32,313 nt of DNA from an uncultured Candidatus Saccharibacteria bacterium (GTDB lineage: Bacteria > Patescibacteriota > Saccharimonadia > Saccharimonadales > Saccharimonadaceae), in assembly GCA_964594565.1 (NCBI GenBank), contig CAZQMP010000002.1, forward strand, positions 1,436 to 33,748. Reading direction: 5' to 3'. The translations under genes were made by a program, and so were the position numbers. The notes under the pieces are model-generated. The model was given only the letters and a program-made list of their open reading frames with translations. It was not told where the DNA came from and did not search any database. Of the stretch, positions 3,971 through 23,502 are shown piece after piece; position 1 is the stretch's first letter, and each line of letters begins with the position of its first letter.

Positions 3971-5809
3971 TCATATTTTCCCGGTATTTGGAGCCTTTGG
4001 GACGACAATGGAAGATGTCTGGTTTTCGGAACCTTGACCCGCGCTCAAAAGAGTTCCTCCAGGAATCTCTAAACAGCTATTTGAGCCGCGATAACCGGTG
4101 CTGCTAACAGGAGAAAGACAGATTTTTAGGTCGCGCGAGAAGTCGAGTTCGCCAATTTCGAAAGACTTTTCGCTTGTATAGCCGGCTGGCATCTCGCCAA
4201 TCGTTAAAAGATAGTAAGCTCCGTCAGAATCAAAGAAAATTCTTAAGCTGTCGTCGCTGGTCTGGGAGTAAGATAAGTTAGAAATCGACGATAGGGTGAG
4301 CGGGGCGCGCGATTCAGTCACAACTGAAGCTTCGTGAGCAATAATGTCGTCCCCGGCCGCAGTTACGGCTTCTTCAGAAGAATTTTCGATATCTCCGAGT
4401 GAGAGAATATAGACTTCTCCGCCGGAACGGTCAGCAAGATAGCGATATTCGTCGGCATGCTCGGCGGTCGTAATTGTATAGAGGTTGACCGGGTCAATTG
4501 AGTAGGCAAGTTCGACGATTTCGTCGCGAGAAACGTTTGAGTTTTCTGGGTTCTCGAGGCGAGTGTCGGTCATGAGGACGAGCGATTTGTTTGCTCCGTC
4601 TTGCCAAGAAGTCTGGCGAAGCACGGAAGCGATATCATCTATTGTTGACATAGCCGGAGCGCCATAAGTCGAACTGACGTATTGGAGCTCAGTTCGAATC
4701 ACGTTCATATCTCGGCAATTGCCACCGCAGAGATTGTCGATACGAACGGAATTGTCGGTTTTGTCGACAAAATAGTAGTAAACGGAAACTTTTCCGCCTT
4801 TGCCGTAAGTTTTATAGGCGAGCGAAAGTGCCTCGGATTTAAACCGACGCAATAAATCGGCGCTTGAGGTTGTGTTGTCGATGATAATTGCGAGGTCACG
4901 AGCGGACTCTGGGGTTTCTGGGAGGTTAAAATACATGTTATAGAGGTCAGTGGCGGCTCGCGCATAAGTTCCCTGCTCATCGTAGGAAGCGTGACCATAA
5001 GCAAAGTTCATGAGATCGATATAAGAGCTACAAATCACATCGTGGAACTGACAGTGCGCGCGGAGCTTACCGGAATAACCACTAGGTTGATATGGATGCC
5101 AGCCACCAAGTATGCCTTCTTTCGTCGTACAATCAGGGACGTAAGCGCGGTATTCTGAGAAAGAACTTTTTCCATTGTAGCAGGCGGGCGTCGTGCGATA
5201 ATACAAATCATATTCGCCTTCCGGGAGATAGAGTTTTGGGTCGCCGAACGTAAGCGCAGCAAAAATCTTTTGACCATCAATCATTTGGGTGAGTTGGGAG
5301 ATTAGCTGGGCACCCTGGGAGTACCCCGAAAGTATTACTCTAGTGTTCGGACAACGGAGACGAAGGGCAGTAATATAGTTTGCAGCCTCAAGCGTTCCTT
5401 CGTAAACCGAGTCACCATACGGTCCGGCTTCCCCGCCGCTCACCCAAGCGCCAAAGCTCGTCTCAAATCGCTGCCAAGTCTGAATGCCAACACCCGGAGC
5501 GGGGTAAGTGTGTCCGCCCCATCCGTCTGGTTTTGAACCGAGTTCGTAATAGCTTATGGAGACACCGGAGCCGCTAAAGGCGGAGTTAATGGCAGTCGAA
5601 AACGGAAGAAAATCACGCGCGGAGTTTACTTCGACGCCAGAACCACGAGCGAAAATTATTTTGATATCCGTACACGAAAGATATTCATCGTCACTCGAAG
5701 CAGCTTCCGCAGCAGAATAAACATTCGTAAAGCTACTAAAAACAAAAATCAGGCTTGTTGCAAGAAGCTTTAAATTAGGTTTTCTGAAATTGTATTTATG
5801 TAAACGCAC
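3971..5809 (-). CDS. Secreted cutinase-family serine hydrolase with vWA-like and C-terminal beta-sandwich domains
   Basis: Signal peptide; cutinase motifs IIFARGSG, GYSQGA (nucleophile elbow), FGDP, C..HDVIC, H..Y; vWA-like DLAIIIDNTTS...LVLMTD...YLADRSGG. GTG start with AAGGAGGT SD at 5813-5820. Confidence 0.85.
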   Translation of the reverse strand: MRLHKYNFRKPNLKLLATSLIFVFSSFTNVYSAAEAASSDDEYLSCTDIKIIFARGSGVEVNSARDFLPFSTAINSAFSGSGVSISYYELGSKPDGWGGHTYPAPGVGIQTWQRFETSFGAWVSGGEAGPYGDSVYEGTLEAANYITALRLRCPNTRVILSGYSQGAQLISQLTQMIDGQKIFAALTFGDPKLYLPEGEYDLYYRTTPACYNGKSSFSEYRAYVPDCTTKEGILGGWHPYQPSGYSGKLRAHCQFHDVICSSYIDLMNFAYGHASYDEQGTYARAATDLYNMYFNLPETPESARDLAIIIDNTTSSADLLRRFKSEALSLAYKTYGKGGKVSVYYYFVDKTDNSVRIDNLCGGNCRDMNVIRTELQYVSSTYGAPAMSTIDDIASVLRQTSWQDGANKSLVLMTDTRLENPENSNVSRDEIVELAYSIDPVNLYTITTAEHADEYRYLADRSGGEVYILSLGDIENSSEEAVTAAGDDIIAHEASVVTESRAPLTLSSISNLSYSQTSDDSLRIFFDSDGAYYLLTIGEMPAGYTSEKSFEIGELDFSRDLKICLSPVSSTGYRGSNSCLEIPGGTLLSAGQGSENQTSSIVVPKAPNTGKI

Positions 5810-14561: not shown

Positions 14562-14960
14562 TTAAATCCTTAAGCTTTCGAAGTCAATCTTTTTGTATGT
14601 AAATTTTTTTACGTCAGAGATTTTTTCGGTTGTGAGGGATTTTACGTAAATATAATAGTCGGTTTCTTCGTCAAGTTCGAAGTCGTCGTAATTTTCCCAT
14701 TCACAGTTTTCTGCGCCTTCGACTTTCTGGACGCAGTAAACAAATTGCTCGTTTAGGATTTGTTCGATGGCGGATTCAGGGAATCCGGTTTGTGCGCGAA
14801 CAATCAAAGTCGATCCGTCCGTCTCTAGGCTAAACACTGTTGGATTTTTTGCAAAGTTCTTTCGAGAATGAAGAACGAGACTAATCGCGGTGAAAATAAT
14901 CAGAATCGCGACAAAAGCAGAAACGAGAATAACGATAAGATTTTTTTGGCGTTTATTCAC
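14562..14960 (-). CDS. Small membrane-anchored hypothetical protein (beta-sandwich-like ectodomain)
   Basis: GTG start at 14960 overlaps the 3' end of the upstream gene; basic N-terminus plus TM helix; YC...C.W...YYIYVK pattern. Confidence 0.7.
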   Translation of the reverse strand: MNKRQKNLIVILVSAFVAILIIFTAISLVLHSRKNFAKNPTVFSLETDGSTLIVRAQTGFPESAIEQILNEQFVYCVQKVEGAENCEWENYDDFELDEETDYYIYVKSLTTEKISDVKKFTYKKIDFESLRI

Positions 14961-17900
14961 AATCACTCTCCATATTATAATCGTTTTCAGCATAGCAGAG
15001 ATACTTCCTGAAGGCGGAATTTAAAGAATCGGTCGTATAGCCAAGAGTTGTGCTGTAGTAGGCGCCGTAGCGATCACGATAGTACGCAATGAAGGCTTCG
15101 GCCAGGAATTCAAATCCTTCGTCGTCACTAAAAGCGTATTCGCTGAGCGGGCGGTCGGCGTCCGCGGTCGAATCGTCTTGAGCATTGCGGATGGCGAGGA
15201 GTTCCGAGCGGGCAGTCGTAAATTCGGAATAATCGTGGAGGAAAGTTCCAGTACGCTCATAGAAAGCGCCGTCAAGAGCGTGCCCGAGTTCGTGAATGAT
15301 GGCATGTTTAATGTAGCCGTCTGCGGCGTCGTCGTATGGCGAGAGAATGTCGACAGGGGCGAAAACACCAAAGTATGGGTAAGTTACGCCCGCAGAGCCA
15401 TCGTGACTCGGATAGGCGTTATACGTCGTATAGTTCGAGAAGCGCATCTTTCCGTAAAGAGTTTTGAGTGCAGGGACGTTATTGAAGGCGCGTTCGATAT
15501 ATTCAGTATAATCAGTTCGAACGGAGCTTTCGATTGTGTCTTGGAATTCGACAGGATAGTATGCGTTTTCATTCGAGTCGTCGACGGAAACCTTTTTTGT
15601 TTCACCAAGGACAAAGTTACTGAGCGAGTACCAGTCCCAGATGCGAGCATAGAGCGTTCCGCTACCGGTAATGTTTAAGCTGTAGACGAGATAGACGTCT
15701 CCGCCAGGGTTAATTCCATAGCCAAGCACCATATGTCCGGGCGAATAGACGCGAGGGACACTAGCGAGTTTGCAGGTGTTGAGGTTGTAACTCACACAGT
15801 TTGTTGATCCTTCGAAGCTTAAGGCGGTCGCGGCGAGGTTGTTGTTCAACCAGTTGCCGTAGGCGATTTCTGTCGTTCCGCTTTGGAAAGTTGTGTTTTT
15901 ACTGAAGTAGACGACGATATTGTTCTGGGAGATAGAATAATAAGTCGTATCTTCGCCGAGTTGGAAAGGAATGCCAGCGCCGAGCGTGACAGGGCCGTTC
16001 TCGCTTAGGCCCCAGCCAGCGGCATAGTTATTACTGTCGGAGGAAGTAAGGGTCGGAGAGACGAGTTGGCAAGTCGAGGCGCCGTTATAGAGGAAGCATT
16101 GGGTTGTTCCGCCGGATTGGCTCATGAACGAAGACGTGCTAGAAGGAATGGTGAAAGTTGCACGGACGGGAGCCGTTCGCCGAGTAATCGAGTAGTAAGT
16201 TTCTTCGCGAGAGAAGTTAAACGAAGCGCCAGGAGTCAAAGAAGCGGTTGTTGCGGTCGGGTCAGTATTCCAGCCGAGCGCCGTATAGCCGGACGCGGCA
16301 GTTAGCTCAGGCACGGTTCCTGGGCAGTAGGTTGCGCCGTTATAGAGGTTGCATTGAACGTCGACGGAAGTCGAAGTGACGGCGTTGTGATCTTGGACTT
16401 GGAAGAGGATGTGGATTACGACTCGAGAAACACTGTAGTATTCGGTATTCTCGTAAACGGTCGCGGATTCTCCGCCATAGAATTCAGGTTCGTCGGCGTT
16501 CATAATCCAGCTCCAGCCGAGGAAGTCGGAAGAGTCGATGGTCGGAAAGACGAATGTACATTCTTTTGTGCCGCGGTAGAGGACGCAAGTATGAGTTGTT
16601 GTTTCAGTCCCGTTATGGAAGGTTACGACAATGGTTTTCTTGGTGATAGCGTAGAAAATTTCACCGCCAGAAATCGACGTTGTTCCGCCGGAAGCGACAG
16701 TCGCTTCTTCTGCTTCGCTTGACAAAGCCCATCCGAGCGGAGCGTGACCGTTGGAACCTCGGAGAGTCGGGGCAACAATTTCGCAACTTGAAGCGCCGTT
16801 GTAGCGCAAACAAGAAGTCGTTCCTCCATCCATGGAAGAAATGGTCGAATCTTGAAGGCGGAAAGTTGCGGAAATTGGCGAAGAGTCACGCGTAATTGAG
16901 TAGAAAGTTGTATCGGAACTTATTTCCGCGCTCGTTCCGAACGGGACGGAAGCAGAAGTCGACGAGGAGATAGTGTTCCAGCCGAGAGCCTCGTAACCAG
17001 AATTTGCGGTCAGGCTCGGCGCAACGATTTCGCAACTTGAAGCGCCGTTGTAAAGTTCGCAGGTCAAGGTTGACTCGCCCGACAACGTCGCGGCAGAAGA
17101 ATCTTGAATGACAAAGGTCGCAGAAAGCGGAGTCGTTTTCTTCGTTACGGAATAGTAGGTTATGTTTTCTGTCAGGAGAATCGTCGTCGCGGAGAGCTCG
17201 GCGGTTGTTGAGGCGGCAGTCCGACTCCAGCCGAGAAGCGCGTAGCCAGAGTTTAGCTCGACGGTCGGGACGTTCACGGAACAGCTTTGCTCGCCAGCTT
17301 CCGGAAGACACGAAACGGTTGAACGGCTCAGAGTCCCGGCGGCAGGATCTTGAAGGATGAAAGTCGCAGAGAGATAAAGGTCAGAGCGAACGACGGCATA
17401 AAAAGTCTTTCCGTCTTCATCGGCACCGAGGTAGAAAGTTTCGCCAGATTCGAGAGAAATCTGCTCTTCGTCGTTAGGGTTATGCCATCCAAGGGCGGTA
17501 TAGTTTTCGTTTGCGACAAGGTTCGGCGCCACGAGTTGACATTCAGTCGCAGCGTTATAAAGCAGACATTCAGTCGTCCCGCCGTTCATGGTTGCGGAAT
17601 CCGGGTCAGGGATCGTGAAGACGGCATGAATCGGAGTATCGCGACGAGTGATGGAATAGAAAATTGTGTCTCCGACAAGGTTATAAGTTGTGTTTTGAGC
17701 GATACTTGCGGTTGTCGAAGATGGAGTTAGGTTCCAGCCGAGAGCAGTATATCCCGAAGCGACAAGAAGCGGGGCGGTCATGATTGGGCAGGAATATTCT
17801 TCATTGTAAATCGAGCAAGAGGAAGAAGTCGTGGTCGTCGAAGCGTGAATAGAATCCTGGACTGCGAAGCTCGCGGTAAGAGTGCGCTTGGCGATGGCGT

Positions 17901-19098
17901 AGAGAGTGATGTTTCCAGAGAGGGTGATTTGCTCATTCGGAGCGAACTCGGCCGTGTGCGAATCAGCATGGGTTGACCAGCCAATGATTTCGTAGCCAGA
18001 GCGGTAGATAGAAGGGGTGCGGATAACACAGGTCGAGGTGGTCGTGCAGGAGCGGGAAGTCTCGCTCGAGGCGCCGTTACCGACGAACAGAGCAACGTAA
18101 GTATATGTCGACGGAGTCGGGTCAGGGTTTGTCGGATTCGTCGGCGATGGTGGGCGAACAATAACGGTGATATCTTCATCTCCGCCGCGTTGAATGTTGT
18201 CGGTCGGCTGACGGGTCGAGGAAGAGCCCGAGGAGCTTGAGGAGCTCGAAGAGCTTGAAGAGCTTGTGTCGGGGAGAGTGCCAACTTCCTCGTCGGTCGT
18301 AAACCGGACAACGACAGATTTGCGGGCAACGTTCCCCGCTACGTCTGTAACAGAGACAGCGTAGGTCCCGGAAGTCGTGACGGTTATGGTCGGGGTGGTC
18401 GCGCCATTATTCCAGGAATAGCTATCGATTCCCGAAGCGGTGTCGGCGGCAATCGCGGTCAGAACAGCTTCCGACTCGCCGGTTATTTCTCGAGAAATCT
18501 CCAAAGTTGGGGCGACTGTGTCGACTTTTGTGACTTTGACGGACTGAACATCAGAAAGAAAGCCAAAATAATCTCGAGCTTGGACTTTATAGGTTCCGTT
18601 TTTGGTAATTCGAGCGGAGTTCGAGGTCTGCCAGGTTTCCCCACCGTCAAAGGTATATTCAAGTTCTTTTACTGTCCCGGAGTTTTCTACGGTCACAGTC
18701 AGCGTCGCGTCGTTTGTCCAGGCGGTCGGATTCCCACGGATTGAGCGAATCGCAAGGGTAGTTGAATTCGGAGCAACCTTCGTAATCGAGAAGGTGTAAG
18801 TCTTGTTGTTGATTACGATCGTATGGCTTGAACTTGAGTTTGAAACGGGGACGGGCGTGTCGCAGCCAGTGACACTCGAGCCGGTACAGACAAAGTTTAA
18901 TGAAGTCTCACTTGTGTAGATTGTATAGTTAGAAGTTTCTTCAGAGAAACTTGGATAGCTCGTTCCGTTCGAGATAGAGATAGAAGCGGGGGTTGTTTCG
19001 CGGGTAAGGAAAAAATAGAGAGCAACGCCAACCCCAATTAACAACAAAAGGATGACGATAATTATAACAAGCTTTTTGTTATCTTTTTTATTCTCCAC
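14953..19098 (-). CDS. Large surface protein: N-terminal anchor, Ig-like domains, ~10 Cys-containing repeats and a C-terminal HExxH zinc-metallopeptidase-like domain
   Basis: N-terminal TM; Ig-like segments (YTFDGG.TW, DTVAPTL...D..SGI); Ser/Pro linker; ~80-aa repeats; HELGHALD (15280-15294) with downstream YA.....EFLAEAF. GTG start with GAGGT SD. Confidence 0.9.
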   Translation of the reverse strand: MENKKDNKKLVIIIVILLLLIGVGVALYFFLTRETTPASISISNGTSYPSFSEETSNYTIYTSETSLNFVCTGSSVTGCDTPVPVSNSSSSHTIVINNKTYTFSITKVAPNSTTLAIRSIRGNPTAWTNDATLTVTVENSGTVKELEYTFDGGETWQTSNSARITKNGTYKVQARDYFGFLSDVQSVKVTKVDTVAPTLEISREITGESEAVLTAIAADTASGIDSYSWNNGATTPTITVTTSGTYAVSVTDVAGNVARKSVVVRFTTDEEVGTLPDTSSSSSSSSSSSSGSSSTRQPTDNIQRGGDEDITVIVRPPSPTNPTNPDPTPSTYTYVALFVGNGASSETSRSCTTTSTCVIRTPSIYRSGYEIIGWSTHADSHTAEFAPNEQITLSGNITLYAIAKRTLTASFAVQDSIHASTTTTSSSCSIYNEEYSCPIMTAPLLVASGYTALGWNLTPSSTTASIAQNTTYNLVGDTIFYSITRRDTPIHAVFTIPDPDSATMNGGTTECLLYNAATECQLVAPNLVANENYTALGWHNPNDEEQISLESGETFYLGADEDGKTFYAVVRSDLYLSATFILQDPAAGTLSRSTVSCLPEAGEQSCSVNVPTVELNSGYALLGWSRTAASTTAELSATTILLTENITYYSVTKKTTPLSATFVIQDSSAATLSGESTLTCELYNGASSCEIVAPSLTANSGYEALGWNTISSSTSASVPFGTSAEISSDTTFYSITRDSSPISATFRLQDSTISSMDGGTTSCLRYNGASSCEIVAPTLRGSNGHAPLGWALSSEAEEATVASGGTTSISGGEIFYAITKKTIVVTFHNGTETTTHTCVLYRGTKECTFVFPTIDSSDFLGWSWIMNADEPEFYGGESATVYENTEYYSVSRVVIHILFQVQDHNAVTSTSVDVQCNLYNGATYCPGTVPELTAASGYTALGWNTDPTATTASLTPGASFNFSREETYYSITRRTAPVRATFTIPSSTSSFMSQSGGTTQCFLYNGASTCQLVSPTLTSSDSNNYAAGWGLSENGPVTLGAGIPFQLGEDTTYYSISQNNIVVYFSKNTTFQSGTTEIAYGNWLNNNLAATALSFEGSTNCVSYNLNTCKLASVPRVYSPGHMVLGYGINPGGDVYLVYSLNITGSGTLYARIWDWYSLSNFVLGETKKVSVDDSNENAYYPVEFQDTIESSVRTDYTEYIERAFNNVPALKTLYGKMRFSNYTTYNAYPSHDGSAGVTYPYFGVFAPVDILSPYDDAADGYIKHAIIHELGHALDGAFYERTGTFLHDYSEFTTARSELLAIRNAQDDSTADADRPLSEYAFSDDEGFEFLAEAFIAYYRDRYGAYYSTTLGYTTDSLNSAFRKYLCYAENDYNMESDCE
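15631..18107 (-). repeat. About 10 tandem ~72-95 aa protein repeats
   Basis: Consensus A.F..QD...T.C..YNG..C...AP.L....GY.ALGW......T.Y(S/A)IT(R/K). An identical 26-nt segment occurs at 16778-16803 and 17027-17052. Confidence 0.9.
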
Positions 19099-19121: not shown

Positions 19122-19151
19122 ATTATAGCATAAGAAAAATCATTATTTCAA
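19122..19151 (-). promoter_or_regulatory. Putative sigma70 promoter of the 1381-aa surface protein
   Basis: TTGAAA-18 nt-TATAAT with extended TG. Confidence 0.65.
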
Positions 19152-19164
19152 GAACATTTTAGCA

Positions 19165-19195
19165 CAAACATTAAGACCGGACTTTCGTCCGGTCT
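19165..19195 (-). terminator. Putative intrinsic terminator hairpin
   Basis: AGACCGGAC-GAAA-GUCCGGUCU, a perfect 9-bp stem with a GNRA loop on the minus strand, followed by a weak U tract (UAAUGUUUG). Confidence 0.65.
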
Positions 19196-19311
19196 CGCTG
19201 ATGCGCGCCCACCCGAGGGCACATTGTTTTGTTTTAATCCGCTGTTTTTGTTTTTAATGTAGTCTCCACACTCCACTAAGATCAGTGGAACCCTGTGAAG
19301 CGTATCAGCTT
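19174..19311 (-). ncRNA. Candidate structured small non-coding RNA (~140 nt), family not recognised
   Basis: Own promoter and terminator-like hairpin; closing stem 19300-19309/19197-19206 encloses three further stems; no convincing coding capacity. Confidence 0.65.
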
Positions 19312-19335
19312 AAGTTTATTATAATAAACTTAAGC
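19308..19335. repeat. Perfect 28-bp palindrome
   Basis: GCTTAAGTTTATTA|TAATAAACTTAAGC is its own reverse complement. Confidence 0.95.
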
Positions 19336-19346
19336 ATTAAAATCAA
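19318..19346 (-). promoter_or_regulatory. Near-consensus sigma70 promoter for the candidate ncRNA
   Basis: TTGATT-17 nt-TATAAT; predicted start ~19311, immediately before the closing stem. Confidence 0.7.
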
Positions 19347-19375: not shown

Positions 19376-20683
<1,308 letters not shown>

Positions 20684-20716: not shown

Positions 20717-21793
20717 CTAAAGCGCTTCGTGGATGAAGGAGTAGGTCTGCCATTCGGAAGCGGCAATCGTGCGAGTTGCGACGCGTCCCCAACCTTGCGG
20801 ACCGTTCATGTCGGAGATGGTAATGGTCCCGTCGGCATTTACGCCGTCAGAGATAACGACGCCAACGTGGCCGTAGTATCCGCCTTCAGCGACGAAGACT
20901 GCACCCCATTCAGGGTTACGGTCAATACGATAGCGACCATAAAGCTGGTTGTCCCAATAGCGGGCGTTACCGAGGCCAGACGGGAGCGGCGAGAAGTTCT
21001 CGTAGCGCCATTGCCAGGCGTACCAAGTACACCAGCCCCAAGGCATCGGGTTGTAGTTTACATAGTTCAGGTTCGAGCGGTAATAGTAAGTTGTCTGGAC
21101 AGGGGCAGGAGCGACGTATTCTGGGCGTTCAGTTTCAGGGAGAGTCCCGCCAGGAATGACGATTTTCATGCCGGCAGAAATGCCGCGAGCGGAGAGGTTG
21201 TTCTTTTCTTCGATTTCTTCGGCGGTCGAGCCATATTTTTCGGCAATCGACGCCGCAGAGTCGCCTTCCTTAACGGTGTAGACGATCCCAGGAACAGAGG
21301 GGAGATAGAGAGTCTGGCCAGCAGAAACGTCGGTCGTTTTGAGGCCGTTCGACCAGCGGATTTGGTCGGTCGAGAGACCCTTTGAGCTTGCGATTGCTTC
21401 CATCGTCTCAGAGGTGCCGACTTCATATTCAATCACACCCTTCGCGAGAGAGGAAGTGTCGACGATATTCGTCTTCTCAATACGGGTCGAGGCGGTTTGG
21501 TTGATTGAGTACTGGGTTACGGCGGAAATATAGTCCATGTTTAGGTAGTTTGAAGAGCTAAGCGAGACATTGTTCGCGATTTCGGCGACGATATAGAGTT
21601 CAGAAAGCTGGTCGACAGAGACGGAATAGTTGTTGTCGGAGATGGCGAGCATGATAGGGACACCGTTCTCTTCGACAGTCTTGTTTTTGGAACCAAAATA
21701 AACTGTTCCGAGGATGAGAGCGCCGGACAAAACATAGCAAAGACCCCTTAAGAAAGGATTCTTGGACTCAGATTTGGATTTTTTAGCTGTCAT
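20717..21793 (-). CDS. LysM-LysM-CHAP peptidoglycan hydrolase with N-terminal anchor
   Basis: Two LysM repeats (YEV...ETM..IA...IRWSNGL; YTVKEGDS..SIA.KYG); CHAP Cys (WCTWYA), GNA..W, His (YGHVGVV), SDMN. ATGA overlap with the upstream gene. Confidence 0.9.
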   Translation of the reverse strand: MTAKKSKSESKNPFLRGLCYVLSGALILGTVYFGSKNKTVEENGVPIMLAISDNNYSVSVDQLSELYIVAEIANNVSLSSSNYLNMDYISAVTQYSINQTASTRIEKTNIVDTSSLAKGVIEYEVGTSETMEAIASSKGLSTDQIRWSNGLKTTDVSAGQTLYLPSVPGIVYTVKEGDSAASIAEKYGSTAEEIEEKNNLSARGISAGMKIVIPGGTLPETERPEYVAPAPVQTTYYYRSNLNYVNYNPMPWGWCTWYAWQWRYENFSPLPSGLGNARYWDNQLYGRYRIDRNPEWGAVFVAEGGYYGHVGVVISDGVNADGTITISDMNGPQGWGRVATRTIAASEWQTYSFIHEAL

Positions 21794-23502
21794 AATGAAA
21801 CGTTACAGAGTTCTGTGCAATGACTGACGATGTTCTGTTGATGCTCAGCCTTTGTAGTACTATAATACATCAAACCATCGTCTCCTGTCAAGAAATAAAG
21901 ATAAGAGGTGTCAGCGGGGTTTGCGGTTGCGATCAGGACAAGGGCGGACGGATTTGAGATTGGTCCACAGGGGAGACCGACATTAATCCGTGTGTTATAA
22001 CAAGAGTCGATTTGGAGCGCAGCGGCGTTGTCGGTGTAGGTTTTACGCTCAGGATCGACCAAATCGAGGGCGTATTTTACGGTTACATCAGATCCAAGCG
22101 ACATACCCATCTGGAGACGAGAATAGAAAACTTGGGCGACGGTCGCCATATCTTCTTTCGAGAGTGTTCCAGCTTCTTTCTGGACAACAGAGGCGAGAAC
22201 AATTCCCTCATGGAGAGTGAGACCCATGTTGTTAAACTTTTGTTTCAGATTGTTTTTCTGGACAACGGTATAGAGTTCGTCGAGCATACGAATCACAATC
22301 GTTTCGACAGAGTCGGTCGTGTAAAATTCGTACGTTTCCCCGAAGAGATAGCCCTCGATAGAGGCGTCAGCGGGTTTGTCGGCCAGAACGGGATGGTCGT
22401 AGGCTTTAGAGAAGGCAGCGTCAATTTCCTCTTCTTCGTAGCCGATGCTCATCAAACGTTTTTTAATGTCCTTCATCGTTTCTCCAGGGAGAGCAGTGAA
22501 CCGGAAGACGATGGCGTCGTTTGAACCGGCTTGGAGCTTTTCGATGATTTTTTCGACGGATTCAGAGGCGGAGATTTGGTAGGTTCCGGCTTTCAAATCG
22601 GCAGAAACCTTGTTTAGCGTCGCATAAATTCGGAAACCAAGAGAGCTTTTTATCAAACCCGCATCTTTCAAAGTATTCGCAATGTCAGTTACGGTCGAGC
22701 CTTCGGCGATTTTTACTTCAACGTACTTACAGGGGTCGGAATCATCAGAGGAAAAGATGCTTGCACAGCTATCCGAGGCGATTTTTGGAGAAATCGAGGA
22801 GTTATACCAGAAATTTGCGCCTAGAACGCCCAGAACAGCCACCAGAACGACGATAATCAAAACCCGAATCACAACCCACTTTTTTGTCGGATCCTTCCTA
22901 TAGGGCTTAAATTGCGTTTTAGGGGCATTTTCGCCTTCTCTCGAGAAGTCAGGGCGACTAGAAACAGGAGCGCCATTAGGGGCTTTTAGGGGATTTTGGA
23001 CGTATTTTGAGGCGTTTTTAGGGACTTTTACGGCAGCAGGGGCAGGTTCTTCGGAGGCGGTTTTCTTCTCTTTTAACCTTCGCTCAAGGTTTTCGAGAAA
23101 ATCTTGGAGGATAATCGTCGCGGCTTCAGTGTCGACATCTCCAGCTTTTTTGTCAAAACCTTTGTTTTTTAGGTTCTGTTTTGCCTCAACAGAGGTCAAA
23201 GATTCGTCTTGGAACAGGATTCTGACGCTCTTGTTATTAGGTTTTTCGCGTTGGAGGAGCTTGTTTAGAGATTTCGCGAAGCGTTTAACGTAGTCAGATT
23301 GGGCAGTTAACTCGCCTTGGAGATTTCGGGGCATCCCGATAACGACTGCGTCGATGTTGTTTAGACGGACGACTTTGACGATGTTTGCGACTTCTTGACC
23401 ATCAACCGCAATCATCCCGAGCGGGACGGCGATTTTTACACTTGAGTCGGCCTTTGCGAGGCCGATTCGCTTTTCTCCGACATCTAAGGCGATAAACTTC
23501 AT
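21790..23502 (-). CDS. ruvX-mltG: Fusion of YqgF/RuvX RNase H-fold nuclease (aa ~1-138), linker, TM helix and endolytic transglycosylase MltG
   Basis: YqgF motifs IALDVGEKRIGLA, VIGMP, QDESLTS, VD..AA.IILQ.FL; MltG motifs EGYLFGETY, LASVVQKE, LGSDVTV.Y, YNT....GLP.GPISNP, YLYF; one uninterrupted frame. Confidence 0.92.
   Translation of the reverse strand: MKFIALDVGEKRIGLAKADSSVKIAVPLGMIAVDGQEVANIVKVVRLNNIDAVVIGMPRNLQGELTAQSDYVKRFAKSLNKLLQREKPNNKSVRILFQDESLTSVEAKQNLKNKGFDKKAGDVDTEAATIILQDFLENLERRLKEKKTASEEPAPAAVKVPKNASKYVQNPLKAPNGAPVSSRPDFSREGENAPKTQFKPYRKDPTKKWVVIRVLIIVVLVAVLGVLGANFWYNSSISPKIASDSCASIFSSDDSDPCKYVEVKIAEGSTVTDIANTLKDAGLIKSSLGFRIYATLNKVSADLKAGTYQISASESVEKIIEKLQAGSNDAIVFRFTALPGETMKDIKKRLMSIGYEEEEIDAAFSKAYDHPVLADKPADASIEGYLFGETYEFYTTDSVETIVIRMLDELYTVVQKNNLKQKFNNMGLTLHEGIVLASVVQKEAGTLSKEDMATVAQVFYSRLQMGMSLGSDVTVKYALDLVDPERKTYTDNAAALQIDSCYNTRINVGLPCGPISNPSALVLIATANPADTSYLYFLTGDDGLMYYSTTKAEHQQNIVSHCTELCNVSL

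Follow-up and report, generated by a model that had tools for sequence, protein, structure and literature searches.

The nearest described counterparts of the locus presented here are sponge RNAs. In the passages of PMC8216469 that treat them, RosA of Bacillus subtilis and RsaI of Staphylococcus aureus are both sponge RNAs, and both bind C-rich sRNAs through G-rich motifs. The small RNA considered here, from an uncultured Candidatus Saccharibacteria bacterium, also presents a G-rich motif and may act in a comparable way. What is new is a corrected fold, the removal of a 6S identity by locating the real 6S RNA, and a concrete candidate partner with a predicted contact of nine bases.

Gene organization and distribution

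The source genome is 665 kb in length and 95% complete, and the analysis began from a window of 32,313 nucleotides, which is the whole stretch of DNA under study. The small-RNA locus lies between obg, which encodes a GTPase (19376..20680), and the gene of a 1381-aa surface protein with a Listeria-Bacteroides repeat (14953..19098), both on the minus strand. The gap of 277 nt that holds it is the largest between called genes of the window, as the preliminary description had noted, and every motif named there was found at its position. As judged from the sequence and its relatives, the locus is a stand-alone non-coding RNA gene with a predicted transcript from about 19311 to 19197 on the minus strand. 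A promoter scan recovered both promoters that had been proposed. The first (19346-19318) consists of a -35 hexamer at 19341..19346 and a -10 hexamer at 19318..19323, both on the minus strand, with a spacing that suggests a start near 19311. The second (19122..19151, minus strand) is the separate promoter of the downstream surface-protein gene and lies outside the small RNA. The conserved core of about 115 nt (19197..19311, minus strand) is followed by an intrinsic-terminator-like hairpin with a GAAA loop (19165..19196, minus strand). The hairpin itself (19196-19173) is present as first described; however, the U-tract behind it is weak in the window copy.

The claim that the gap is structured on the minus strand holds in that this strand folds far beyond shuffles (z -4.5), but the plus strand does so as well (z -5.2), and thus folding alone cannot fix the strand. 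The strand is set by the promoter at a fixed distance and by the downstream terminators, all of which lie on the minus strand, and the plus-strand reading was rejected on these grounds. A TTGAY hexamer is found exactly 35 nt upstream of the RNA start in 31/31 genus rows, and the terminator hairpins differ in sequence among the genus copies. Across the order, a promoter-like site just upstream was identified in 58/93 members, compared to 105/4,650 control windows, and a hairpin with a T-run is present downstream in 65/93.

The surroundings of the gene are not constant. Linkage to obg is typical of the genus only, and the small RNA may follow obg on the same strand, follow it on the opposite strand, precede it or lie elsewhere; adjacency to the surface-protein gene is not conserved. 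Order-wide, 39 of 90 listed upstream ORFs were scanned, and 19 of these 39 encode an NAD-dependent DNA ligase; the gene downstream varies, a Mur ligase being present at 9 of the 33 loci scanned out of 87. Since neighbors and orientation change, the small RNA is judged not to be a leader, and comparison of promoter, terminators and flanking genes supports the independent transcription unit that had been suggested. In the window itself, a single 570-aa ORF on the minus strand (21790-23502) fuses a RuvX/YqgF domain with a YceG/MltG domain.

A sequence search matched the small-RNA DNA in 143/150 genus genomes. There is one copy in the source genome and one strong match per genome among the relatives listed, which argues against the dispersed MITE/REP-like repeat that had been raised as an alternative. 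A first covariance model, built from the genus, reached 30/150 order genomes, and a second, built on 26 of the first model's loci, reached 108/150 (E <= 0.1), of which about five weak matches look doubtful. In a class sample, the second model found the small RNA in 41/46 genomes of its own order versus 4/104 from other orders. From 104 aligned matches, the 93 best were kept for member counts and the 11 weakest rows were dropped. The alignment rows and the long-RNA examples discussed below include one unpublished genome (G183); no conclusion depends on it alone. Two genomes gave more than one copy. In one (G225:C19, L105/L135), a partial second copy follows about 90 nt downstream, on the other side of an N gap, and a genome titled Nanosynbacter sp. 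has two different copies (L387, L393), one on a 517-nt contig, perhaps from contamination.

A pattern scan of GTDB genomes returned at least 117 loci; the first 80 listed were scored and 41 reached at least 30 bits. Of these, 36 are in records titled Saccharibacteria, Saccharimonadales, Saccharimonas, Nanosynbacter or Nanosyncoccus, one is titled Patescibacteria and four carry only the title 'bacterium'. The best match from another phylum among the scored loci (29.6 bits, 29% G+C, broken stems, selected by pattern) is probably due to chance. Records under the titles Ca. Nanosyncoccus and Nanosynbacter sp. also contain the long form seen in the window. In viral contigs, the genus pattern had no match and 13 G+C-rich motif matches scored at most 22.5 bits, giving no convincing copy of the small RNA. 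Matches in four sequencing runs all came from contigs of relatives, with small word shares, and continued into the flanks.

Extremely reduced epibionts retain very few non-coding RNAs. With a mean column identity of 85% over 31 aligned genus copies and presence in most of the order, the small RNA probably does something important. Family members are found in records titled Nanosynbacter, Nanosyncoccus and Saccharimonas; thus, the small RNA can be sought in cultured strains. For one strain, TM7x, the relevant passages of a 2022 preprint (10.1101/2022.03.25.485537) report no validated small RNA.

Predicted fold and conserved elements

The preliminary description drew a cloverleaf, in which a closing stem encloses a four-way junction made of a long arm (a), a five-pair stem ACAUU/AAUGU displaying an A/C-rich loop (b), and a short hairpin (c). 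Covariation favors and supports a rod instead as the conserved fold. Over the order, this rod is 73-150 nt long (median 86) and is composed of a closing stem (P1), an asymmetric internal loop with a near-invariant GGUGGG on its 3' side, a G+C-rich second stem (P2) and an A/C-rich apical loop. All of its elements are read on the minus strand. In the window copy, the 5' strand of P1 (19295..19309) pairs with the 3' strand (19197..19212), an assignment based on covariation. The 5' strand of P2, AGGGU (19290..19294), pairs with GCCCU (19216..19220), which in an alternative conformer forms a short hairpin with GGGC. A genus-specific insertion of 34 nt (19256..19289), which is present in the genus rows and absent from most order members, contributes a hairpin (19289-19272) and two GUGGAG repeats. 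The unpaired A/C-rich strand (19226..19255) carries an AAAYAAAMA module, often in two to four copies, with a mean unpaired probability of 0.82-0.95. A near-invariant motif at 19206..19214, GGGUGGGCG, is referred to as the key since it is the reverse complement of the terminal loop of a long RNA beside dprA.

The A/C-rich loop, for which the preliminary description had suggested several roles, is indeed unpaired and conserved (84/93 members); however, no element is as constant as GGUG[AG]G, present in 93/93, with the qualification that the model selects for both. The spacing between the module and GGUG tends to be 33-39 nt.

Support for the rod comes from several alignments. The pairing NGGG/CCCN of P2 shows seven double changes in the 31 genus rows, and across the order all eight P2/P3 pairs vary on both sides. 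In a plain MAFFT alignment, 8/16 pairs change on both sides versus 3.9 in shuffles (0/500 shuffles). In the 104 model-fitted rows, pairing is kept in 92.6% of cells, and double-changed cells number 250 versus 62 when shuffled (0/500), a comparison that leans toward the model since the rows were fitted to it. In contrast, no two-sided change is seen for arms a, b and c anywhere in the 31 genus rows. One to three of these rows break stem b with no compensation, and forcing this stem costs 1.9 kcal/mol more in the window copy, with a stem probability of 0.02. The GGUG region, formerly assigned to hairpin c by a pairing that lacks covariation, is part of the internal loop of the rod. Examination of relatives thus upheld a conserved and covarying RNA but not the four-way junction.

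The window copy may be able to adopt a second fold. A three-arm form, consisting of arm a and hairpin c without stem b, is predicted at -34.1 kcal/mol compared to -34.2 kcal/mol for the rod, and it accounts for 0.61 of the ensemble versus 0.37. The 3' hairpin of this alternative form pairs in 86% of cells with one-sided changes only, and its probability exceeds 0.1 in 30/93 members. From these calculations, bistability between rod and three-arm form is possible.

When 40 of the 42 order genomes lacking a match were searched again with relaxed settings, mostly chance matches and three variants (G276, G058 and G260) emerged. The variant in G276 (L325:1501-1581) has no A/C-rich loop, contains two GGUGGG motifs and keeps the key; the variant in G058 (L326:1501-1535), also without the A/C-rich loop, is a 35-nt hairpin displaying the key. 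In G260 (L331) and G048 (L103:1501-1650), which belong to two different families, a related hairpin of 60-70 nt is inserted 5' of the A/C-rich loop. A recurring A/C-rich element that gave weak model matches in four further families (G187, L168; G215, L332; G241, L333; G243, L335) ends in a shared 19-nt motif and is distinct from the small RNA.

Relation to known RNA families

No Rfam family reached its gathering score in the window, and the matches on the gap were sub-threshold and due to chance, as were those on 20 further loci with family members. On comparative evidence, the small RNA is a real, conserved RNA family that belongs to no catalogued (Rfam) family. Its initial separation from tRNA, tmRNA, 6S, SRP and RNase P RNA is borne out by comparison and by the presence of separate genes. 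ARAGORN identified no tRNA in the window. Both 5S rRNA and RNase P RNA have separate genes in 5/5 genomes, as does tmRNA in 4/4 relatives searched; neither ARAGORN nor Rfam identified a tmRNA in the source assembly, from which it is probably missing. The SRP 4.5S RNA was rejected because the small RNA has no such Rfam match and the Ffh M-domain (PF02978) was found in 0/5 genomes, with 14/14 controls positive. A Y RNA was rejected because its partner Ro60 (TROVE) was found in 0/5 genomes, and a sponge for CsrA or Hfq because each of these proteins was also found in 0/5. Mimicry of 16S rRNA was discarded as well; a relative's 16S contains no GGUGGG and alignment scores are no better than shuffles.

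The 6S RNA required closer comparison. Rfam 6S was found in 31/104 other-order versus 1/46 own-order genomes, and this distribution, opposite to that of the small RNA, made a 6S identity attractive at first. One own-order genome has a real 6S alongside the small RNA. A lineage-trained model, built from 24 Patescibacteria 6S cores, identified 6S in 109/150 order genomes, 77 of which carry both RNAs. Given these separate 6S genes at another locus, the 6S identity was rejected. The small RNA matched neither the Rfam 6S covariance model (RF00013) nor the lineage-trained model (R3), and its alignments, unlike those of 6S, have no central bubble and upstream duplex with GGGAG/CACCCACC. In the source genome, contig C36 carries a likely 6S that Rfam missed (E 0.011 in 4 kb; ~4330-4470, plus strand; L292:1857-1956); a NUDIX/RNase H-like gene and rnpB lie downstream of it. 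The 6S gene is near rnpB in all four genomes where both were located.

In the open literature covered, no description of such an RNA was found, and a prior description is possible; this literature also yielded nothing on Saccharibacteria with 6S RNA. The relevant passages of PMC8321541, PMC11109978, PMC8172020, PMC8216469 and the TM7x preprint do not describe the small RNA, and the main text of PMC11109978 does not mention these taxa.

Candidate partners and comparison with known systems

The candidate partner is an intergenic RNA of about 350 nt that is divergent from dprA (contig C25 of the source genome, ~4290-4645, plus strand; L230/L231) and has no Rfam match. Two of its loops, UACCCUCCAC and UGCCCACCC, are invariant, and a GGUGGG in its interior is predicted to form a 3' pseudoknot with the UGCCCACCC loop. 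The 9-nt UGCCCACCC loop caps the terminal hairpin and is predicted to be open. This long RNA is present at 9/9 dprA loci examined, where the UGCCCACCC loop is invariant, and the exact pattern of its 3' domain occurs in 62/150 order genomes (reversed control, 0). A strict pattern of the hairpin gave four true sites in 150 genomes and two other matches in a coding gene. The other invariant loop, CUCCAC, resembles the 16S tail and is found in 42/44 copies. In both RNAs, GGUGG is directly 5' of the 3' strand of the closing helix.

The reading that we prefer, and hold tentatively, is that the small RNA is a RosA-like sponge whose GGGUGGGCR would pair over 9-10 bases with UGCCCACCC of the dprA-linked RNA. 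The partly exposed GGGU would nucleate a loop-bulge contact, which would then extend to 9-10 pairs and displace the long RNA's own GGUGGG, which pairs with 6-8. Displacement would open the 3' pseudoknot and may change the stability of the long RNA or the exposure of its anti-Shine-Dalgarno-like loop. In such a scheme, a KH-type chaperone or nuclease would dock on the A/C-rich strand, and the second fold of equal energy would hide the key.

Counting both strands, the 665-kb genome has four perfect complements of the 9-mer key. Two lie within coding regions, one is simply the strand opposite the key itself, and the fourth is the hairpin loop of the long RNA on C25. About 0.003 such complements would be expected across small RNA genes totaling 1,500 nt, a value computed after the fact. 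Where both RNAs were compared, the contact with the long-RNA loop spans 9-10 contiguous pairs in 16/20 genomes, eight in one and five in three, and the long RNA's own motif pairs with the loop over 6-8 bases in these 20 genomes. The varying ninth base of the key is nearly always A or G, either of which pairs with the loop's U, but it also pairs inside P1. Likewise, the GUGGAG repeats of the genus insertion are complementary to the CUCCAC loop, but they also pair inside the small RNA. The variants in G058 and G276, which keep the key without the A/C-rich loop, were counted for the sponge.

Other observations weigh against the sponge. In 3/3 genomes with a GGUGAG key, the loop is unchanged and the run drops to five pairs with no compensation. 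Since the long RNA has its own GGUGGG, pairing in cis suffices to explain the conservation of the loop. The key is half buried, with a mean unpaired probability of 0.35-0.63 over 93 members, and that of its GGG is near 0 in the window copy. Allowing G-U pairs places the UGCCCACCC loop 57th among 2,755 candidate sites. Co-occurrence of the two RNAs is no more than chance (48/60/14/28, p 0.27), in a comparison where related genomes are non-independent and both searches are incomplete. Cofolding them gains 1.3 kcal/mol by a method that is blind to kissing loops. The match was a post hoc observation, and a 7-base complement of the key is present in 6S as well.

A more elaborate version, which we regard as rather unlikely, is a two-RNA device in which the dprA-linked RNA would display a copy of the 16S tail and be locked by its 3' pseudoknot, with the bistable small RNA unlocking or joining it by strand exchange. 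If true, such a device would serve the whole order as a switch made of RNA only, or as an RNA machine with two subunits, of an uncatalogued kind, operating in Saccharimonadales genomes of less than 1 Mb in which Hfq, CsrA and SRP were not found.

A protein may be the partner instead, which is the main rival reading and only slightly less favored than the sponge. The small RNA would then be a decoy or part of a small RNP, with the AAAYAAAMA strand and the GGUG loop contacting a conserved protein, possibly one of the KH or S1 type such as KhpB/Jag. The GGUGGG shared with the long RNA would reflect binding of that same protein by both. The conserved, unpaired and often repeated module, its regular distance to GGUG and the like placement of GGUGG in both RNAs are all consistent with this, and no covariation with another RNA is required. 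Proteins of the KhpA/B family are present in 5/5 genomes, but they are so widespread that their presence says little. Against a decoy, the partner protein is hypothetical, the classic targets CsrA, Hfq and Ro60 were not found, and two variants are without the A/C-rich loop.

The small RNA is unlikely to be an ordinary trans-acting sRNA, with either the G-rich key or the A/C-rich strand as its mRNA-pairing segment. The gene is a stand-alone unit from promoter to terminator, and pairing energies of -22 to -27 kcal/mol were predicted between the key and several sites in coding regions; however, the key does not match the Shine-Dalgarno signal in use (GGAGG in 65 and GGTGG in 3 of 469 upstream regions), and G-rich seeds would be unable to block such sites. 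On the same counts, the small RNA was rejected as a Shine-Dalgarno mimic. The antisense pairing to GUUUU tracts that had been suggested for the A/C-rich repeats found no specific target, the genome having 54 TTTTGTTTT sites.

The small RNA might also be a ligand of RNA polymerase, acting as a minimal 6S-like decoy through an A/C-rich bubble or as an antagonist that pairs with the 6S motif CCCACCU. 6S RNAs refold their 3' strand into a hairpin after product-RNA synthesis, and here too a long closing stem has a 3' strand that can refold into a hairpin, in addition to the 7-base complement to the conserved 6S motif. This reading is nevertheless very unlikely given the true 6S elsewhere in the order, with a likely one in the source genome, and the missing upstream duplex and 6S model match. 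Moreover, 6S is uncompensated in 3/3 GGUGAG genomes and cofolding with 6S gains nothing.

The L15 loop of RNase P and the antiterminator bulge of the T-box both pair with the tRNA 3' ACC(A). A similar role for GGUG(G) is suggested by its invariance within the internal loop and by the many tRNA genes here that end in CACCA. It is highly improbable since the bulge is shorter than that of the T-box and permuted, there is no specifier stem, the GGUGAG variants break UGG, and the small RNA is no leader of synthetase genes. Finally, a reverse-transcriptase template, a dispersed repeat or a short coding gene might be imagined from a repetitive A/C loop framed by stems, but these are largely excluded and scarcely tenable given one copy per genome, no reverse transcriptase among 72 neighboring ORFs scanned (which also speaks against the template role once suggested), 1-nt indels through the loop with no start-led reading frame, and no convincing viral copy.

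Compared to known systems, the small RNA shares with the 4.5S SRP RNA and Y RNA a size of ~75-120 nt and a rod closed by a stem, and differs in having no Rfam match to them and in a host in which searches for the Ffh M-domain and Ro60 came up empty. As a stand-alone RNA in which unpaired motifs are repeated, it also recalls the protein sponges CsrB/RsmZ and CrcZ; however, CsrA and Hfq were not found here, a GGA motif is present only in the genus form, and the CrcZ match is weak (10.7 bits versus a cut-off of 95). Like 6S RNA (RF00013), it is single-copy and housekeeping-like, is closed by a stem and has a 3' strand that could refold, but the central bubble and upstream duplex are lacking and a true 6S coexists.

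The RosA-like sponge, the preferred reading, draws on a closer likeness. Differences are apparent in that the small RNA is much shorter than RosA and RsaI, is rod-shaped and has no sequence or Rfam relation to them. Its key is partly paired, its binding is predicted, and its presumed partner is an undescribed RNA that pairs the same loop in cis. In common with RosA and RsaI, it would be a stand-alone small RNA with its own promoter and terminator, as read here from sequence, in a host where Hfq was not found, with a G-rich motif complementary to the C-rich loop of another non-coding RNA. The arrangement of RosA with RoxS, as given in the corresponding passages of PMC8216469, is the one proposed here for the small RNA and the dprA-linked RNA.
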